From IMG/VR virus record IMGVR_UViG_3300025174_000006: DNA of 20,000 nucleotides. One strand, 5' to 3'. The translations under genes were made by a program, and so were the position numbers. The notes beneath the pieces were generated by a model. It was not told the origin of the DNA, ran no database searches, and saw only the letters and a program-made list of their open reading frames with translations. Numbering within the stretch: position 1 is the first letter of the stretch; every line of letters begins with the position of its first letter. Shown here one piece after another: positions 9,661-19,902 of the stretch. Source of the DNA: an uncultured virus (IMG/VR IMGVR_UViG_3300025174_000006) (Duplodnaviria > Heunggongvirae > Uroviricota > Caudoviricetes).

Positions 9661-10116
9661 ATGAGAAACATCAGAAAAATGATAAGGAAAATTTTAACAG
9701 AAGAATTAAAACCCACTGTTGTGTACTCAGCTGTTGTTATTGAGAGATTTGAAGATATTGGGAAGTTGGATTTGATTTTTAGTAAGTACATCGAAAACGG
9801 TTGGAAAAAACCAACTCATTATCACATGACTATTGGACCGGGAAAATTTCCTGAGAGCTTGTATTTAAAAGGAGATTTAGACAAAGAAGTGACATTAGAA
9901 ATAACGTCTATTGGAATTTCAGAAAAAGCTATTGCACTTGGAGTTTCTGGATATTATTCAAGAAATGATAATCCACACATTACTATTGCTTTCAATAAAG
10001 AAAATGGAGGCAATCCGGAAGATAGCAAAGTGATTGAAAATTGGGGACATATTGATAATTTTTATGTAACCGGAATAATAAGAGAAGTTGGAGAAAATAA
10101 TTTAGTTATTAAATAA
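9661..10116 (+). CDS. 2H phosphoesterase-family protein
   Basis: Two HxT motifs (YHMTI, PHITI); N-terminal IRKMIRKILTEE helix. Confidence 0.75.
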   Translation: MRNIRKMIRKILTEELKPTVVYSAVVIERFEDIGKLDLIFSKYIENGWKKPTHYHMTIGPGKFPESLYLKGDLDKEVTLEITSIGISEKAIALGVSGYYSRNDNPHITIAFNKENGGNPEDSKVIENWGHIDNFYVTGIIREVGENNLVIK

Positions 10117-10120
10117 TTAG

Positions 10121-10199
10121 TACCTTCAATAGGATTCGAACCTACATTTTCAGCTCCGTTACACTTATTGAGTCCGTAGCTCAATGTGGCTATAAAGGC
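10121..10199 (-). tRNA. Atypical tRNA-Arg(ACG)-like RNA lacking a normal D-arm
   Basis: Acceptor GCCTTTA/TGAAGGT, anticodon arm ATTGAG-CTACGGA-CTCAAT, canonical T-arm GTAGG-TTCGAAT-CCTAT. Only 7 nt separate the acceptor and anticodon stems. Confidence 0.7.
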
Positions 10200-10200
10200 A

Positions 10201-10887
10201 TTATATTAATTCATATCGTTTTGCCCACTTTCTCACCGCAACATCACTAACTCCAAATTTTCTACCAAGTGCACAATATGAATTATTTTCTATCATTTCT
10301 TTTAATTCTTCTTTAGAGGGTCTGTTTTTTACTTTTCTAAAATTTAATCTAGGTACATATTTTCTCGTTGTTTTTTTATTTGTTTTATTTTTTTTTGCAT
10401 TTTTTCTGTCTACGCCAATTTTACCACGGCAATGAGTTTCTAATGTGAAATTGCAGTTTGGACATAAAAATCTTAAGTTTTCTAATCTATTATCATTATT
10501 TATTCCGTTTTCGTGGTCAATAATTAAACTAATTTTTTTACCTCTCCATATTTCTCCTTGTCCACATTCTTTACATTCATATTCTATCATGTTATTATCT
10601 CGTATTCTTTTTTTTAAACAAGCCCTTGCAACAGAACTGTTTTCACAAAAAATTTCTTCATCACTTTTCCTTAATAATCTGTCTTCATTAAACATTTTTT
10701 TAGCAAAATCACTACGGTTTAAAAAATGAGAAGTATCTATTGACCATTTATTTAAATTTGTTTTAAGTATTTTATAAGATGAAGAAGAATCGCTTCTTCC
10801 AGATTTTACTATAACATCTCTAAATGTGATGCTTTCAGATACTAATTTTTGTAATTCTTCTTTTGTATATTCTTTATGTTCTTTCAT
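10201..10887 (-). CDS. HNH homing-type endonuclease with C-terminal HTH
   Basis: CKEC...IDHENGINNDNRLENLRFLCPNC and LGRKFGVSDVAVRKW; lies inside the tRNA array. Confidence 0.85.
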   Translation of the reverse strand: MKEHKEYTKEELQKLVSESITFRDVIVKSGRSDSSSSYKILKTNLNKWSIDTSHFLNRSDFAKKMFNEDRLLRKSDEEIFCENSSVARACLKKRIRDNNMIEYECKECGQGEIWRGKKISLIIDHENGINNDNRLENLRFLCPNCNFTLETHCRGKIGVDRKNAKKNKTNKKTTRKYVPRLNFRKVKNRPSKEELKEMIENNSYCALGRKFGVSDVAVRKWAKRYELI

Positions 10888-10944
10888 AATTCTAACTTAT
10901 TTTAATGTAAATAGGTTAGAATTTTTTAATAAAGTAAATAGTTG

Positions 10945-11020
10945 AGGATAAGAAGAGAATTAAACTCCTGTTAAATATGTTTTGCAGACATATCCCGATT
11001 TCAACATTGGGTACTTATCC
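10945..11020 (-). tRNA. tRNA-Cys(GCA), copy 2
   Basis: GGATAAG/CTTATCC acceptor, U73, ATATGT-CTGCAAA-ACATAT, T-loop TTTAATT. Confidence 0.85.
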
Positions 11021-11048
11021 TTGTAAAAATTAAAAAAGTAAATAGTTG

Positions 11049-11124
11049 AGGATAAGAAGAGAATTAAACTCCTGTTAAATATGTTTTGCAGACATATCCC
11101 GATTTCAACATTGGGTACTTATCC
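11049..11124 (-). tRNA. tRNA-Cys(GCA), copy 1
   Basis: Identical to copy 2. Confidence 0.85.
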
Positions 11125-11137
11125 TTGTAAAAATTAA

Positions 11138-11409
11138 AAAAGTAAAATCCTAAGTATAGCCGCGATTTTGTTCTATCTCATCATTTATCTGAAGGTATTG
11201 CTACCAACTGGAGACTTTAAACGTCTACCACGCACCTACCCGACTATCAACAACGTAAAGGTTCCCCGTCTACAGTCTGTTTGGCTTGCATCCTATGTTG
11301 CGGAAGTACATACGCTATTTGTTATAGCTTCTTCCTCCTTTTAAAAGATGTCGCGAACTTCCTCTCGATTTTAAGAATCGAGCGATGAGTCCTTCAGGAT
11401 TTTACTTTT
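11138..11409 (-). ncRNA. rnpB: Minimal RNase P RNA (~270 nt)
   Basis: Long P1 (GTAAAATCCTGA/TTAGGATTTTAC) and P2 (CTCATC/GATGAG). Conserved blocks GAGGAAGTTCGCG, GCAAGCCAAACAG, GGGTAGGTGC, AGATAAATGA and AACAAAATCGCGGCTATA occur in bacterial RNase P order. Confidence 0.9.
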
Positions 11410-11413
11410 CTTG

Positions 11414-11485
11414 AGGCTCCACTGACAATCGATGTCAGGACTCAAATTTACAAGATTCGTGTTTTGCCACTTAAACTACGGAGCC
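11414..11485 (-). tRNA. tRNA-Thr(TGT)
   Basis: Cloverleaf GGCTCCG/TGGAGCC, anticodon loop CTTGTAA, T-loop ATCGATT. Confidence 0.9.
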
Positions 11486-11501
11486 ATTATTTGTTCTTAT
11501 G

Positions 11502-11575
11502 TGGAATCTACCGGCATTGAACCGGTCTCTCAGGCGTGCAAGGCAAGTGTTCTAAGCCAAATGAACTAAGACCCC
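11502..11575 (-). tRNA. tRNA-Ala(TGC)
   Basis: G3:U70, anticodon loop CTTGCAC; anticodon stem has two mismatches. Confidence 0.85.
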
Positions 11576-11613
11576 AATTTAATTTGTTCAAAGTACAAAT
11601 TATTAAAAACTTT

Positions 11614-11689
11614 TGGCGAGTATGACCGGTCCTGACCCGGCGACCTCCTCATAGACAGTGAGGCATTCTTCCAACTGAACTACACACTC
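11614..11689 (-). tRNA. tRNA-Asp(GTC)
   Basis: CCTCA-CTGTCTA-TGAGG, G73, encoded CCA, T-loop GTCAGGA. Confidence 0.9.
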
Positions 11690-11701
11690 ATTATTTTTTA
11701 A

Positions 11702-12010
11702 AAAAGTAAGACGCCATTTCGCTGATAGCGTTTTTTGTGTTCTGTTTAATGCGCCAAAGAACATCTGATTATGTTCAGCATTTAGCGTTCATGCTTGGTT
11801 ATTATAACATACTAACATTCCTAATATTGTCTGATTACCTATTTTGAGTTTGCATAGTAGGTTGATTTTTATTTCCAGGGTAAAAATCAACAAACAAACC
11901 TAACGTCTGATAAACTTTATTTTTCATCCGGTAAACGTTTTGTACATTGTTTAGTTCATTAGGCTAAAACAACACGTCTTTTTCACGGACAACATTAGTA
12001 ACTTACTTTT
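11702..12010 (-). ncRNA. Unidentified ~310-nt structured RNA
   Basis: Ends pair (AAAAGTAAG/CTTACTTTT), multiple nested helices, no long ORF; sits between tRNA-Ile and tRNA-Asp. Confidence 0.7.
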
Positions 12011-12014
12011 CTTG

Positions 12015-12088
12015 TAGTGCATCTGAGAATTGAACTCAGTACTTCCACGTTATCGGCGTGGCACTCTGGACCGATGAGTTAATGCACT
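12015..12088 (-). tRNA. tRNA-Ile(GAT)
   Basis: AGTGCAT/ATGCACT, CCACG-CCGATAA-CGTGG (C33). Confidence 0.9.
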
Positions 12089-12102
12089 GTTTTTATTTAA
12101 AG

Positions 12103-12175
12103 TCTAGGTGGCCTGCTCCGACCAGGCGGTCTCCAGTTCCCAAAACTGGCGGATTTCCAACTTTCCCACACCTAG
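12103..12175 (-). tRNA. tRNA-Pro(TGG)
   Basis: CTAGGTG/CACCTAG, CCAGT-TTTGGGA-ACTGG, T-loop GTCGGAG. Confidence 0.9.
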
Positions 12176-12213
12176 AAATTTTGTTTATCTTTCCAAACTG
12201 TCTTTTAATAAGA

Positions 12214-12276
12214 GTTCAAGCTCGGTTATCCACCGATTCGAAGGACTGCATTAGCCTTCTCTGCAGACACTTGAAC
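12214..12276 (-). ncRNA. Small 63-nt three-way-junction RNA with pseudoknot
   Basis: GTTCAAG/CTTGAAC, CTGCA/TGCAG and TCGGT/ACCGA stems; loop GAAGG pairs with downstream CCTTC. Confidence 0.6.
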
Positions 12277-12278
12277 AT

Positions 12279-12354
12279 TGGAGCGAAAAACCAGGTTCAA
12301 ACTGGCGACCCCCAGAGTGGAAATCTGGCGCTCTATCAACTGAGCTATTTTCGC
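12279..12354 (-). tRNA. tRNA-Gly(TCC)
   Basis: GCGAAAA/TTTTCGC, U73, encoded CCA, anticodon loop TTTCCAC, T-loop TTTGAAC. Confidence 0.92.
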
Positions 12355-12443
12355 TTATGTATATAATTCTCTCAGACCATATTACCAAGATTTACTTTGG
12401 ACTCACCGTATTTTAAAAGTGAGCAGAATTGTATTTAATTAAA

Positions 12444-13391
12444 TTATTCTAATAATAATTCATCAATTGTTAAAATTGAATTTAAATTATCTATTGTTTT
12501 TTTAAATATCATTTTAACATTAATGTTGTTTTGTTCTAATACTAAACTCATTTTTGTTTTATCTATTATTGAATAATATCCTTTAGTTTCTATGTATAAG
12601 TTAAAATTTGGCAAATAAAAATCTGGCACATACGTTTTTTCAACACCTTCTTTAATATATTGAATATATATTTTTCTAATCCACAATATTTTATTGTCAT
12701 TTAACCATTGCGACATTTTTAATTCATATTTTCCTCTTAAAGAATATTCTTCACCAATAATATTTTTTTGTTTATAAAATTTCACATGTTTAAAATTGTT
12801 ACTTATTTCATTTTCTTCTAACATCTTGGAGTGAGATTTGCTAATTTTCGATTTTTGTTCAGAAGAAAGTGGCTTTCCTAATTGGTGATGTATTCTCTTA
12901 CCAGTAGCATACATTTCTTTTTGTTGCTCAGATGCTTTATTTACCCTATTATCAGTTTCCTTTGTAAGTCCTCTTGACCATCCCATTTTTGATTTAGTCT
13001 CTGCATTACTGTATTTTTTATTTTTATATTCAACTCCATCCGGTGTATGCATTTGAAATATATGACCACATATACCAAGTTTGTGAAATATTAATTCGCA
13101 ATGAGGACATTTATATTTATCTACATCAACTTTCCAAGATTCATCTACTGTTATTTGTTTTTTATTAACTGTATTACATTTATTATAATGCCTTTCAAAA
13201 TTAGAAACAGAAATATTTTTATTACATTTATCACAACATTTTGTGTTTTTAGGTTTTCCAAGTAAAGAAATACTTAAATTTTTTAATCTTTCTTTTAACT
13301 TTGGATTAGATTCACAATTTACTATATGAGCACCAAATTGTTGTGGGATCTCAAACTCAAAAGACTCTTTGCAATGCGGACAAGTTTTCAT
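12444..13391 (-). CDS. Homing-type endonuclease (Zn fingers, NUMOD3-like segment, PD-(D/E)XK domain)
   Basis: Several CxxC...H motifs, GKPLSSEQKSKISKS and YVPDFYLPNFNLYIETKG. Confidence 0.8.
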   Translation of the reverse strand: MKTCPHCKESFEFEIPQQFGAHIVNCESNPKLKERLKNLSISLLGKPKNTKCCDKCNKNISVSNFERHYNKCNTVNKKQITVDESWKVDVDKYKCPHCELIFHKLGICGHIFQMHTPDGVEYKNKKYSNAETKSKMGWSRGLTKETDNRVNKASEQQKEMYATGKRIHHQLGKPLSSEQKSKISKSHSKMLEENEISNNFKHVKFYKQKNIIGEEYSLRGKYELKMSQWLNDNKILWIRKIYIQYIKEGVEKTYVPDFYLPNFNLYIETKGYYSIIDKTKMSLVLEQNNINVKMIFKKTIDNLNSILTIDELLLE

Positions 13392-13460
13392 ACTTTTTTA
13401 TTATAAATAGTATAAAAAATTGCAGGTTAGAAAATTGTTAGCACGTTATTGTTTTTTGAG

Positions 13461-13543
13461 TGGGAGTTGATGGAGACGAGCCACCCGAGTTTTAAAACAA
13501 CCGATTTACAGTCGGTCCCGCTACCCCTACGGAATAAACTCCC
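13461..13543 (-). tRNA. tRNA-Tyr(GTA)
   Basis: GGGAGTT/AACTCCC, ACCGA-CTGTAAA-TCGGT, long variable arm, T-loop CTCGTCT. Confidence 0.9.
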
Positions 13544-13555
13544 ATTTTAATGTTG

Positions 13556-13627
13556 CACAGACGGTTATAATCGAAATAACTACGTGTAGTTTTTGGAGAA
13601 CTCACCGACACCAAGCCTGTCGTCTGT
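13556..13627 (-). tRNA. tRNA-Trp(CCA) with atypical D-region
   Basis: ACAGACG/CGTCTGT, G73, anticodon loop CTCCAAA, T-arm GTTAT-TTCGATT-ATAAC; A8 instead of U8. Confidence 0.78.
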
Positions 13628-13666
13628 ATTTTATCTATTTTTTAAGCTGTAAGATAATTAGCTAAG

Positions 13667-13738
13667 TAGCGAAAACTGGAATCGAACCAATGTAGACACA
13701 GCTTATGAGACTGGTGGGAAACCAACATCCTTTTCGCA
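13667..13738 (-). tRNA. tRNA(CAT), Met; 1:72 mismatch, possibly initiator-like
   Basis: TGCGAAA/TTTCGCT, anticodon loop CTCATAA, T-arm ATTGG-TTCGATT-CCAGT. Lacks the three GC anticodon-stem pairs of typical initiators. Confidence 0.75.
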
Positions 13739-13751
13739 ATATATTTTTTTG

Positions 13752-13824
13752 TAGCCCCTGCCGGTCCTGACCCGACGACTTCATTCATGTAAAAAATGCA
13801 CTCTACCAACTGAGTTAAGGGGCT
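13752..13824 (-). tRNA. tRNA-Val(TAC)
   Basis: AGCCCCT/AGGGGCT, CATTT-TTTACAT-GAATG, T-loop GTCAGGA. Confidence 0.9.
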
Positions 13825-13829
13825 ATTAG

Positions 13830-13903
13830 TAGCATATATCAGAATCAAACTGATGACCTTCCTCATATGAAAAGGACGCTCTAATCAACTGAGCTAATAT
13901 GCT
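13830..13903 (-). tRNA. tRNA(CAT), elongator Met or Ile2
   Basis: AGCATAT/ATATGCT, TCCTT-TTCATAT-GAGGA, T-loop TTTGATT. Confidence 0.85.
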
Positions 13904-13913
13904 ATTTAAAAAG

Positions 13914-13985
13914 AGCGGGTGATGAGGATTAAACTCACGGCCTCATCCTTGGCAAGGATGCGCTCTATCGCTGAGCTACACCCGC
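13914..13985 (-). tRNA. tRNA-Gly(GCC)
   Basis: GCGGGTG/CACCCGC, U73, CATCC-TTGCCAA-GGATG, T-loop TTTAATC. Confidence 0.92.
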
Positions 13986-14061
13986 TTTTTTGATTATCAA
14001 TATGTCAAATAACTCTGCAAACTTTTAAGTCATTGCTCGACTTGTAAACTTTTTAAGCAAC

Positions 14062-14091
14062 AAAAAACCCGAACCTTTTTTAAGTCCGGGT
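14062..14091 (-). terminator. Attenuator terminator upstream of the tRNA array
   Basis: CCCGGAC-N9-GTTCGGG followed by TTTTTT; the 5' arm overlaps an alternative helix. Confidence 0.85.
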
Positions 14092-14130
14092 GTGTTATGT
14101 TGTTTCCCTTTTAAGTTTTTATATCTTACT

Positions 14131-14259
14131 TCATGAAACAAAATGTTTTAACACACCCATATTATCGCGGCTATAATCGCCAGGGGTAATACACGCATAC
14201 CCGACTGTCGGCATGACTGCCCAAATCGTTGTAATTGTTGTATGTGTTAAATTTTTCAT
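14131..14259 (-). CDS. Putative 42-aa attenuator leader peptide MKNLTHTTITTIWAVMPTVGYACITPGDYSRDNMGVLKHFVS
   Basis: Manual translation from ATG 14259 to TGA 14131. Lies between promoter and terminator and contains the antiterminator 5' strand. Confidence 0.8.
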   Translation of the reverse strand: MKNLTHTTITTIWAVMPTVGYACITPGDYSRDNMGVLKHFVS

Positions 14260-14339
14260 TGAAGATGTTTTCTTTTTAATTAAACTTAAATAGTATAAAA
14301 AATTATTTTCTCAAATATTTCTTTCGACCAATTATAACG

Positions 14340-14372
14340 CAAAGATATAATTAAAGTTTAATAAAAAGCAAA
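14340..14372 (-). promoter_or_regulatory. Bacteroidota sigma-A-type promoter for the leader and tRNA operon
   Basis: TTTG (14369-14372), 21-nt spacer, TATCTTTG (14340-14347), matching TTTG-N19-21-TAnnTTTG. Confidence 0.7.
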
Positions 14373-14401
14373 TTTATTTTCATTTATTTTTTATTTAACT
14401 T

Positions 14402-14464
14402 GTAAAATCCTGATATTCAGCTAAATAATTTTTTGTAAAATCCTAAACATAATCGTAAAATCCT
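14402..14464. repeat. Three copies of GTAAAATCCT (14402, 14435, 14455)
   Basis: Exact 10-mer direct repeats just upstream of the operon promoter. Confidence 0.75.
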
Positions 14465-14514
14465 GTCATTGATAATATTAAACAAAAAATCCACAATTTT
14501 TTTAAGCAAGGGAG

Positions 14515-14543
14515 CCAACGAATTTATTCGTTGGAGTATGTCA
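14515..14543 (+). mobile_element. Possible IS200/IS605-family end-hairpin remnant
   Basis: CCAACGAAT-TT-ATTCGTTGG followed by AGTATGTCA; no transposase or TnpB gene nearby. Confidence 0.35.
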
Positions 14544-14571
14544 GTCAATAATATTTCCTTGCAATTTGTTT

Positions 14572-14775
14572 TTACCAACCTTCTTTAGCAACTCCGGATG
14601 CAACTGCAGCTTCTGCGTTAGCAGAGCTCATTATAGCACACATTTTATGTCCTTCTTTAGTTTCTCCTTTACATACGTATCCACCTTTTGCGTTTTTAGA
14701 TATGATAGGATTAACGAAAGTTTGTTTGCTTTTTAATTTCATACAATATCCTTCTAATACGATTAATGTGCTCAT
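14572..14775 (-). CDS. Small DUF5679-like protein, paralog 1
   Basis: EGYCMKLKSK...KGGY..KGE...GHKM; clearly similar to 16170-16370. Confidence 0.7.
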   Translation of the reverse strand: MSTLIVLEGYCMKLKSKQTFVNPIISKNAKGGYVCKGETKEGHKMCAIMSSANAEAAVASGVAKEGW

Positions 14776-14879
14776 GATTTTTAGTTTTAAGTTTTTTATA
14801 AATATGAAATATTTTATAAAACAAGTTTTAATATATGTTTATGTTCTAAATTAGCTTATATTTATATAAAAACAAGCTC

Positions 14880-15633
14880 ATGAAAAATTTAAAAAAAATA
14901 ATAGAAGAAACAGTAAGTAAAGTTCTGGGTGAAGGCGATTTTTTAACACATCAAATAAAAAATTCAATAAGCGTGTTAAATAATGTTTTCAAAGACAACT
15001 TAGTTGCAAAGATAAACGAAACAAATGATAAAGATAAACGAAACAAATGATAGTGTTATTGATGTTTATATTAAGAAATACAATATAAATGCATTAACAA
15101 AAATAGATAAAACGATAGAAAATTTAGGATATTTTATTTCTATTTTTAGTATAAATGGATTTCAAAAGAAATTTAACAAAGATTCATTTTTTAAAAAAAT
15201 AAAAGACTTAAAAGAATTAACTCCAATATACCTAAAGCTGGAGAAAAAAATGGACTCAAATGAAGATATAGATACAATTATCCCATCTATGTTATATCAC
15301 ATTACACATGAAAGACATCTCGCAAAAATCAAGAAAATAGGTTTAGTTCCAAAATCTAAATCTAAAAAATCAGCTCATCCTGAAAGAATATATTTAGCGT
15401 GGAATGAAGAATCTGCTATAAAATTAGTAAAAGAATTTTCAGATTTAGAATACGAATTTGAACATAATTATGTTTTATTAAAAATTGACACAAGTAAAAT
15501 TTCTGAGTTTAGACGTGATAAAAATTTCAAATTACATAATGACCCAAACTTTACAGATGGTTATTTTACATATGATAATATACCTCCTGCTGCAATAAAT
15601 TTTGAAAATATGAAATTAATAAACCTTGAATAA
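14880..15633 (+). pseudogene. ADP-ribosyltransferase/Tpt1-like gene split by a 22-bp duplication (ORFs 14880-15050 and 15025-15633)
   Basis: LYHITH...IKKIGLVP...RIYLA...LLKID...NIPP. Removing one copy of aaagataaacgaaacaaatgat (15008-15029, 15030-15051) gives a single 243-aa ORF. Confidence 0.7.
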
Positions 15634-19802: not shown

Positions 19803-19829
19803 TTGAAATTATTATTTTTTAATATAAAG

Positions 19830-19902
19830 TGCTTCCAGTTGGACTTGAACCAACGACCCGAAAATTAAGAATTTCCTACTCTACCATCTGAGCTATGAAA
19901 GC
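19830..19902 (-). tRNA. tRNA-Lys(CTT)
   Basis: GCTTTCA/TGGAAGC, GGAAA-TTCTTAA-TTTTC, canonical D- and T-loops; outside the main array. Confidence 0.93.

Follow-up and report, generated by a model that had tools for sequence, protein, structure and literature searches.

A candidate leader-peptide attenuator that mirrors the tRNA array behind it in an uncultured Caudoviricetes virus

Leader-peptide attenuators are known from amino-acid operons. Some of them are multivalent, as in enterobacterial ilvGMEDA, ilvBN, and thr, and others are dedicated to a single amino acid, as in the trp, his, leu, and pheA leaders. In the phenylalanyl-transfer RNA (tRNA) synthetase operon pheST, attenuation by the pheM leader controls a translation gene and responds to how much charged tRNA is available. 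The T-box riboswitch works without translation and binds one uncharged tRNA directly via its specifier codon. Phages carry tRNA arrays, which have been interpreted as making up for a mismatch in codon usage, for degradation of host tRNAs, or for defences that cleave tRNAs. Most discussions treat them as passive cargo against codon bias or loss of host tRNAs, and their control is largely unknown. The mechanism of the pheL leader is described in PMC3082878. Here we analyse a 20,000-nucleotide (nt) stretch of DNA from an uncultured Caudoviricetes virus (IMG/VR IMGVR_UViG_3300025174_000006). This whole stretch is called the window, and positions refer to it unless another record is named. On its minus strand, a promoter-like site is followed by a 42-codon open reading frame (ORF), three overlapping helices, an intrinsic terminator, and 15 tRNA genes for 12 amino acids. 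With a probability of roughly 0.78, we interpret this cassette as a leader-peptide transcription attenuator that would couple transcription of the phage tRNA operon to the decoding speed of the codons that those tRNAs read. A search of the published literature, mostly at the level of titles and abstracts, found no description of leader-peptide control of tRNA genes in phages or elsewhere.

The starting point was an earlier reading of the window from its letters (the sequence-only reading), which knew of no phage tRNA array under such control, and the literature search agrees with it. It had given plus-strand coordinates for a minus-strand feature, and they are correct. Its sequence of promoter, 42-codon ORF, terminator, and 15 tRNAs for 12 amino acids is reproduced by the ORF, terminator, ARAGORN, and Rfam results. 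The central observation concerns the composition of the ORF. Codons 7-32 were said to contain every one of the 12 amino acids served by the array, with 25 of 26 residues drawn from that set. A recount gave the same figures, the sole exception being a Ser residue, and 0 of 3124 control windows were as good. This comparison used a maximal-segment scan, which finds the best run of residues in the array's set (in-set residues) and was applied identically to leaders and to coding windows of the same length. Control windows came from the long ORFs on the DNA stretch that carries the cassette, with one window started every three positions. The best in-set run of the window leader is 23/23 residues and was equalled by none of the 3124 sampled coding windows. 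The match is strongest in the ATG frame. Between codon 2 and segment 2 (the predicted 5' arm of the antiterminator, near the end of the ORF), 26 of 32 codons are in set in frame versus 18/32 and 19/32 out of frame.

The same anatomy is conserved before other arrays, and the frame-specific match between leader and array extends over several cassette types. We analysed 11 cassettes from the window and its relatives (records G001-G005 and L-numbered loci) and compared four further variants. All 11 cassettes and the four variants have an equivalent leader ORF, 18-46 codons long. The nearest record, G001 (212,632 base pairs, bp), is identical to the window over the cassette. About 8.7 kilobases (kb) upstream it has a second cassette, with the same promoter block and the same GGGTGTGT...ACACACCCGGAC...GTTCGGGTTTTTT switch and with an unrelated leader. 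A 31-mer of the promoter block has only 2 occurrences in the 212,632 bp of G001, each before a leader. The second leader, MTTNNTHKHFNKSSFSNKSRAGVYCPFES, begins MTTNNTHKHFNKSSFSNKS, and its core has T, N, H, K, F, and S. The tRNA genes that follow, 26 nt past the T-run, are Phe, then Ser, Asn, His, Lys, Lys, and Lys. The complete relative G002 (518,809 bp) has three large arrays with one cassette each, and every cassette has its own leader. The best segment of its Gly-type leader is TTWPVMPTTVGAICIIMAGDY, ahead of Gly/Met/Val/Trp/Tyr/Pro/Ile/Asp/Ala/Thr/Arg. In the Phe-type leader TNTSHNHFNKSTFSNKS, 17/17 residues belong to the set Phe/Ser/Asn/His/Thr/Lys. The third leader of G002 stands ahead of Leu/Arg/Met/Glu/Ile/Gln and has the core LRQLVLEQLIE (CTA AGA CAA TTA GTG TTA GAA CAA CTT ATA GAA). 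Ten of these 11 codons are cognate to the array tRNAs Leu(UAG, UAA, AAG), Arg(UCU), Gln(UUG), Glu(UUC), and Ile(UAU). L162, the second member of this third type, has a different core, in which 10 of 11 codons are again cognate (by hand reading of the sequence and the tRNA list). In a distant lineage, represented by G003 and L083, the switch is kept and the leader core is TYRNIEPTITGTCPAYGW (TYRNIKPTATGICPAYGW in L083). This core contains all nine amino acids of an Ala/Tyr/Gly/Trp/Pro/Ile/Arg/Thr/Cys array and is without Val, Met, and Asp. In G003, the tRNAs for Val, Met, and Asp belong to a separate array with a leader that starts with MSHDDNKSGFKRV. No peptide similarity links the leaders of different cassette types, but every one of them draws on the amino acids, and for the most part on the codons, of its own array.

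Controls for the other ten cassettes, expressed as coding windows that match or exceed the leader at the amino-acid level, gave 0/3305, 0/1818, 3/659, 0/3303, 0/3557, 0/1933, 25/3495, 0/1139, 42/1235, and 177/1203. Zero control windows were as good in 7 of 11 cassettes at the amino-acid level and in 8 of 11 at the codon level, where the third cassette type reached 0/3495. Frame specificity is general. From the start to segment 2, the 11 cassettes have 193 of 262 codons in set in the ATG frame versus 110 and 107 in the shifted frames, and the codon-level figures are 165 versus 81 and 83. The non-ATG frames of the leaders also carry stop codons. The sequence-only reading expected leader content to track array content in related phages, and it does. 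A leader's own array is its best fit within the genome in 10 of 11 cases, and among all 720 permutations of six class representatives the true pairing scores best, at the amino-acid as well as the codon level. Synonymous choice follows the arrays as well, since 67 of 78 codons for in-set residues are readable by array anticodons, as compared with 74% in long ORFs (Fisher p = 0.011). Between orthologues, 15 of 23 variable core columns stay in set (a hand count on an alignment limited to the maximal-scan segments).

Conservation extends to the promoter and to the frame of the leader. The promoter-like site heads a block of ~120 nt that is ~90% identical over 111 aligned bases to that of the second cassette in G001, and its architecture is common to 4/4 Gly-type cassettes, the G001 second cassette, and the G002 third cassette. 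We take the TTTG/TAnnTTTG form to be the Bacteroidota promoter consensus. Upstream of the 18 long ORFs in the window there is no Shine-Dalgarno-like 4-mer, and the G+C content of the window is 29%. A Bacteroidota host is a reasonable assumption for this phage, though it is not proven. Among Gly-type cassettes, to which that of the window belongs, 6 distinct variants of 42-46 codons have the start ATG and the stop conserved and the frame between them intact. The leader peptide matched no Pfam or PHROGs family. An Rfam scan of 9900-14400 at E <=1 gave nothing on the leader except MicC (E = 0.96), which was taken as noise.

Pattern searches show where else the cassette occurs. In the viral collection, the terminator pattern has 7 loci, and in 7/7 a small ORF precedes it and a tRNA array follows directly. 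In the metagenome collection, 14 of 16 loci belong to the same family; one of these is a cut contig with a partial leader, and one has no tRNA in its contig. Metagenome matches L092 and L096 were set aside as GC-rich chance matches. The terminator pattern had 0 matches in the bacterial genome collection. A looser antiterminator pattern, GGGTGTGT-N25-55-ACACACCCGG, returned 19 loci, namely the same 7 contigs and 12 GC-rich chance matches without tRNAs. The pattern made for the third cassette type was too generic (1 of 120 loci relevant), and that for the MSHDDNK-type terminator found nothing beyond three records already known. As for cultured relatives, a distant DNA search with 13600-15100 against 50,697 phage records gave tRNA matches only, and the cassette of the distant lineage (G003 type) gave no match as a query.

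The RNA of the window cassette can be folded in the manner expected of an attenuator. The helix arms named by the sequence-only reading are found where it had placed them (TTTAACACAT at 14251..14242, GTGTGTTAAA at 14156..14147, GGGTGTGTTA at 14158..14149, and TAACACACCC at 14097..14088). At minimum energy, 14259..14062 folds with both the 1:2 helix and the terminator in place (-49.3 kcal/mol, z = -2.96, 3/200 shuffles as good). The terminator scan reports ACCCGGACTT-AAAAA-AAGGTTCGGGT followed by a T-run at 14091..14067, with 10 pairs, 5 of them G-C, and a hairpin energy of -13.8 kcal/mol. Segment 1, which is the first 22 nt of the ORF with the start codon included, forms a duplex with segment 2 and the last sense codons at -12.6 kcal/mol (12/500 shuffles as good). 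This 1:2 protector duplex is better than shuffles (<=18/500) in 8 of 11 cassettes. The 2:3 duplex of the window reaches -21.0 kcal/mol and takes 5 nt of the terminator arm (2/300 shuffles as good), and at most 7/300 shuffles are as good in 9 of 11 cassettes. In 11/11 cassettes, the best partner of the terminator 5' arm is found in the last 5-10 codons of the ORF. The segment 2 motif GGGTGTG is invariant in nine cassettes. The two cassette types without it have different terminators and a correspondingly different segment 2, and their duplexes are weak relative to shuffles (23/300 and 50/300). The expectation that the helices covary is borne out for the terminator stem, in which 3 pairs are changed on both sides across nine cassettes (score reached by 1/500 shuffles).

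Folding models with ribosomes placed on the leader suggest how the arms might compete. In the nascent-transcript model, the RNA ends before the terminator 3' arm. With queued ribosomes, this model sequesters the terminator 5' arm in 11/11 cassettes as long as the lead ribosome occupies the core; the arm becomes largely free, again in 11/11, once that ribosome is in about the last third of the ORF. With a single ribosome, the arm is sequestered again near the stop codon in several cassettes. The equilibrium model with queued ribosomes reproduces the switch only partly; in the window, the drop of the terminator reaches approximately codon 30, coinciding with the end of the core. In the full-transcript equilibrium model, the terminator dips to 0.1-0.4 in four cassettes. 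The robust feature that these models share is that a ribosome at the 3' end of the leader would permit termination and a ribosome delayed upstream would permit read-through.

Spacer lengths bear on the same question. The distance from the T-run to the first tRNA is 26, 12, 14, and 34 nt in four cassette types. Spacers of 12-34 nt are too short for a TTTG-N19-21-TAnnTTTG promoter (~31-33 nt), so the tRNAs of these four types would depend on read-through.

The proposed mechanism is as follows. A dedicated promoter would drive the 42-codon leader, and translation of the ORF, with ribosome stalling, would supply the signal. The last nine sense codons would hold the antiterminator 5' arm (GGGTGTGTTA...TTGTTTC), whose partner overlaps the 5' arm of the terminator. 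Ribosomes that run through would cover the leader 3' end while RNA polymerase makes the terminator. No antiterminator would then form, and transcription would stop before the tRNAs. A ribosome held in core codons 7-32, which include all 12 array amino acids, would leave segment 2 free to capture the terminator arm, and the polymerase would read through into the 15 tRNAs. The queued-ribosome models are partly consistent with stalling in these central codons freeing segment 2. In a leader without translating ribosomes, the helix between the start region and segment 2 might act as a protector; its role is uncertain. A shortage of usable host tRNA (e.g., when a defence cleaves tRNAs or the host is shut off) could be the trigger, feedback from the tRNAs that the phage itself makes is just as plausible, and amino-acid starvation is another candidate. 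The multi-amino-acid leader-peptide attenuator first proposed for the window has gained support from the other cassettes, from frame specificity, from the geometry of segment 2, and from the short spacers.

Several results weigh against this interpretation. Covariation is absent from the antiterminator in the nine alignable cassettes (1 pair, score 0.033 versus 0.035 for shuffles). Its 7-bp core (7 of 10 pairs) is invariant in these cassettes and so lends no covariation support. The full-transcript equilibrium model keeps the terminator at least ~50% populated at most ribosome positions. With a single ribosome, the equilibrium model drops the terminator only when the ribosomal A site is in the first 10-13 codons or so, and not in the central codons. 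Equilibrium models show no switch in the third type and in two minor G003 types. The nascent-transcript model without a ribosome also sequesters the terminator arm (0.40-0.98), and the protector helix is not dominant; the device may therefore differ from trp-type superattenuation. On the side of composition, whole-ORF enrichment is modest (p ~1e-3 to 0.47; 4874/10443 for the G002 third leader), and the signal is confined to a core that was located by the maximal-segment scan, with controls scanned identically. The cores are impure, with Ser in the window and N, Q, K, S, E, and R in relatives, and 6 of 12 variable core columns of the Gly-type alignment mix in-set and out-of-set residues. The G003 Ile(UAU)-type cassette is weak (177/1203), and its own array is not its best match. 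A Cys codon is kept in the leaders of G002, G004, and G005, and no tRNA-Cys was detected in their examined arrays. The codon-level fit of the window leader is an imperfect 22/32; under strict wobble, for instance, the Val codon GTC is set against tRNA-Val(UAC). Finally, the window cassette has a conserved spacer of 76 nt that could hide a second promoter. This spacer is without a clear promoter consensus and has one weak sigma-70-like match.

The cassette could instead be a translation-coupled attenuator of a less specific kind, one that reports general translation capacity or amino-acid starvation (for instance, how many ribosomes are available after host shut-off, or infection timing) and not the particular tRNAs, with codon choice that simply follows phage codon usage. 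A stall at any codon would give the same output, decoding is limited by charging and not only by tRNA abundance, and the preference for array-readable codons is modest (67/78 against 74%, p = 0.011). We consider this account unlikely, because three leaders in one genome have nearly disjoint amino-acid sets, each equal to that of its own array. Codon usage alone is insufficient to produce such sets, and sampled coding windows of the same genomes almost never reach the observed runs. It is also conceivable that translation has no part in the matter. The leader would then be an RNA-only switch or a protein-binding element (a riboswitch, a T-box-like tRNA sensor, or a processing or pause signal) with an untranslated ORF. 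Nucleotide-level conservation of the promoter block, segment 2, segment 3, and the terminator would suit such an element, as would a fold that is more stable than shuffles (z = -2.96), and translation of the ORF is itself read from the sequence. We regard this as very improbable. The array match is specific to the ATG frame (193/262 versus 110 and 107), the other frames have stops, and the ORF is open in all variants with lengths that differ by whole codons. The core sequence varies freely while its residues stay in set. Rfam offered no leader match at E <=1 bar the MicC noise (E = 0.96), nor a T-box match.

Alternatively, the ORF could encode an ordinary small phage protein, under a promoter and a terminator of its own. 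In that case the tRNAs would be made by leaky read-through or by initiation within the spacer, and the likeness between peptide and array would be incidental. Gly-type variants show good conservation of the C-terminal half, AGDYSRDN[MK]GVLKHFVS. The conserved 76-nt spacer of the window, with its weak sigma-70-like match, could hold a promoter, and whole-ORF enrichment is only moderate. We find such a gene quite improbable. Leaders without peptide similarity each mirror their own array, the identity pairing is first of 720, and 7 of 11 cassettes have 0 control windows as good. The stretch of conserved C-terminal codons is also where the RNA pairs with the terminator arm, and in the MSHDDNK... 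leader GGGTGTG falls in a different reading frame. Only 12-34 nt separate the T-run from the first tRNA in four cassette types, and the leader has no Pfam or PHROGs match. The leader-peptide attenuator remains the reading that we prefer, and the features on which it is built are collected in Table 1.

Table 1. Features of the leader cassette and of the tRNA array that follows it, with positions on the window.
Feature	Position	Strand	Basis
Promoter-like site, TTTG-N21-TATCTTTG	14340..14372	-	motif at -113..-81 from ATG
A/T-rich 5' untranslated region, without Shine-Dalgarno-like motif	14260..14339	-	sequence
Putative leader ORF, 42 codons + stop, MKNLTHTTITTIWAVMPTVGYACITPGDYSRDNMGVLKHFVS	14131..14259 (14259..14131)	-	translation
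Segment 1, start codon through codon 8; complementary to segment 2 and last sense codons	14238..14259	-	
Putative sensing core, codons 7-32, TTITTIWAVMPTVGYACITPGDYSRD	14164..14241	-	in-set residue content
Segment 2, predicted antiterminator 5' arm (GGGTGTGTTA...TTGTTTC), codons 34-42	14134..14160	-	
Segment 3, predicted antiterminator 3' arm (GAAACAA..TAACACACCCGG); shares 5 nt with terminator 5' arm	14086..14107	-	
Predicted intrinsic terminator, 10-bp hairpin + T-run	14062..14091	-	terminator scan
Spacer from T-run to first tRNA, 76 nt; block of ~50 nt nearly invariant in Gly-type cassettes	13986..14061	-	alignment of 5 cassettes
tRNA array, putatively gated	10121..13985	-	ARAGORN (default + relaxed), Rfam

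The array begins with Gly(GCC), Met, Val, Met, Trp, and Tyr, followed by an endonuclease ORF and by Gly(UCC), Pro, Ile, Asp, Ala, and Thr. Behind Thr there is an RNA that resembles ribonuclease P (RNase P) RNA, then Cys, Cys, an HNH ORF, and Arg(ACG). Of these tRNAs, 11 are found by ARAGORN at default settings and three more at a relaxed threshold, namely Met (13738..13666), Trp (13627..13555), and Tyr (13543..13460). Another, at 10199..10121 (-), escapes ARAGORN and is detected by Rfam with 34.6 bits; it is atypical and has ACG (Arg) in the anticodon loop. In this tRNA-Arg(ACG) the D-arm region is much reduced (3 nt versus 13 in the model), and there is a long insertion before the T arm. The RNase P RNA announced by the sequence-only reading is present as an RNA match and falls short of a full identification. 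It matches the bacterial RNase P class A model (RF00010) at 11402..11141 (-), between tRNA-Thr and tRNA-Cys, over 262 nt and model positions 1-367. Its 39.2 bits (E 6.6e-10 to 8.8e-11) are far under the Rfam gathering cut-off of 100 bits. We treat the RNase P-like identity as a lead and do not assign this RNA to RF00010. The corresponding 20 kb of the 519-kb relative G002 contain no counterpart at E <=0.001. The two nuclease ORFs that interrupt the array are endonuclease I-like (PF05367; 12444-13391, -) and HNH (phrog_10822; 10201-10887, -). They look like mobile insertions, and the gaps at corresponding places in relatives differ in size. The neighbouring genes of the window include DNA methyltransferases, a cytidylyltransferase, and a Gp23-like capsid fragment, besides the HNH and endonuclease I-type nucleases inside the array. 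A tRNA-Lys(CUU) at 19829-19902 (-) is the last member of the upstream Phe-type array, whose leader lies outside the window at ~185.1-185.4 kb of G001.

Some short repeats were noticed around these elements. The sequence GTAAAATCCT has five exact copies in the window. Three are direct copies just upstream of the leader promoter, at 14402-14411, 14435-14444, and 14455-14464 (+). The other two form an inverted pair at both ends of the RNase P-like RNA, at 11142-11151 (+) and 11396-11405 (-), and might constitute a P1 helix. With one mismatch allowed there are 8 matches, a number reached by 2/200 shuffles. A TACTATTTA motif of the 5' untranslated region was dropped, as it has 2 copies in the window and 20/200 shuffles equal that. 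The Gly-type spacer contains a block of ~50 nt, AAGTCGAGCAATGACTTAAAAGTTTGC...TTTGACATATTG, that is found in the window at 13986-14061 (-) and at L070:2411-2525, L072:18800-18928, L075:2554-2672, and L087:5036-5153. A hairpin with compensatory changes follows this block in the four relatives and not in the window.

Other tRNA-like genes of the relatives are of interest. G002 has a cluster of three (L077:3800-4130, ~458.8-459.1 kb) directly behind a TTTG...TATCTTTG site, without a leader ORF and without a terminator. As this cluster has the promoter type and no leader, the device is not obligatory for every tRNA gene, and the leader appears specific to large arrays. Directly upstream of the Phe-type leader promoter there is a tRNA-like sequence (L069:14546-14662 in G002; L072 ~9907-9995 in G004) whose acceptor and T arms are normal and whose interior carries a long insertion. 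Its G002 copy scores 28.8 bits against the Rfam tRNA model, just under the cut-off. ARAGORN also reports four-base anticodons (aggg, agaa) in relatives, at L075:6676-6770 (also in L086 and L087), L078:1818-1892, and L079:1799-1873. One of these genes sits between two Arg tRNAs of a Gly-type array. They could be frameshift-reading tRNAs or artefacts.

A wider claim can be attached to the attenuator. Large phages may run their tRNA supply as demand-driven circuits, with a bespoke leader for each operon. Any shortfall of usable tRNA, whether from defence, from shut-off, or from the phage's own codon demand, would induce the matching set, and the new tRNAs would shut it off. Such circuits would form a general class that recurs in unrelated lineages and has a possible counter-defence trigger, and we give this extension even odds. 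If it is true, tRNA is both the sensed quantity and the product, in a class of phage regulation that has so far gone undescribed. A leader that mirrors the tRNA set of its operon codon by codon would be a direct and self-correcting gauge of decoding capacity. Leader-peptide attenuation would be extended from genes of amino-acid biosynthesis to tRNA genes, and from one to three amino acids to as many as twelve. Testable questions follow about phage sensing of tRNA-targeting defences, about transcription-translation coupling in hosts without Shine-Dalgarno signals, and about leaders as predictors of the tRNAs that become limiting during infection. The compact cassettes could also serve synthetic biology as natural sensors of tRNA availability.

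How does the cassette compare with the systems named at the outset? The phage tRNA arrays of the earlier literature are likewise large phage-encoded sets, and they give a rationale for demand-driven expression, whereas the leader-peptide switch ahead of the array has no equal among the arrays in the literature searched. With the T-box, the phage device would share read-through that is set by the state of tRNA through a choice between terminator and antiterminator. The phage signal is frame-specific and spread over many codons, unlike that of a T-box. The Rfam scan of 9900-14400 at E <=1 had no match to the T-box leader model, and by sequence the device does not appear to be a T-box. The closer parallel is pheM, since both apply leader-peptide attenuation to genes of the translation apparatus and the phage device, too, would sense charged tRNA. 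In contrast to the phage device, pheM is chromosomal, senses one amino acid, and has a synthetase as its product.

The likeness to attenuators of amino-acid operons is more extensive. As in the ilv, thr, trp, and his attenuators, a short leader, here putatively translated, lies between the promoter and the structural genes. The regulatory codons, which represent several amino acids, are scattered over many positions. The predicted alternative helices (1:2, 2:3, and 3:4) lead up to an intrinsic terminator, and the stop codon is in or next to the antiterminator. The differences are equally distinct. The phage genome has Bacteroidota-like signals and no Shine-Dalgarno motifs. Segment 1 of the phage leader covers the start codon and not the regulatory codons. 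As many as 12 amino acids are represented in the phage leader, with one or a few codons apiece and no runs of a single codon. The device is phage-encoded, with one tailored copy of the leader per array, and it would regulate tRNAs in place of biosynthetic enzymes, so that the product would be the very molecule that is sensed.

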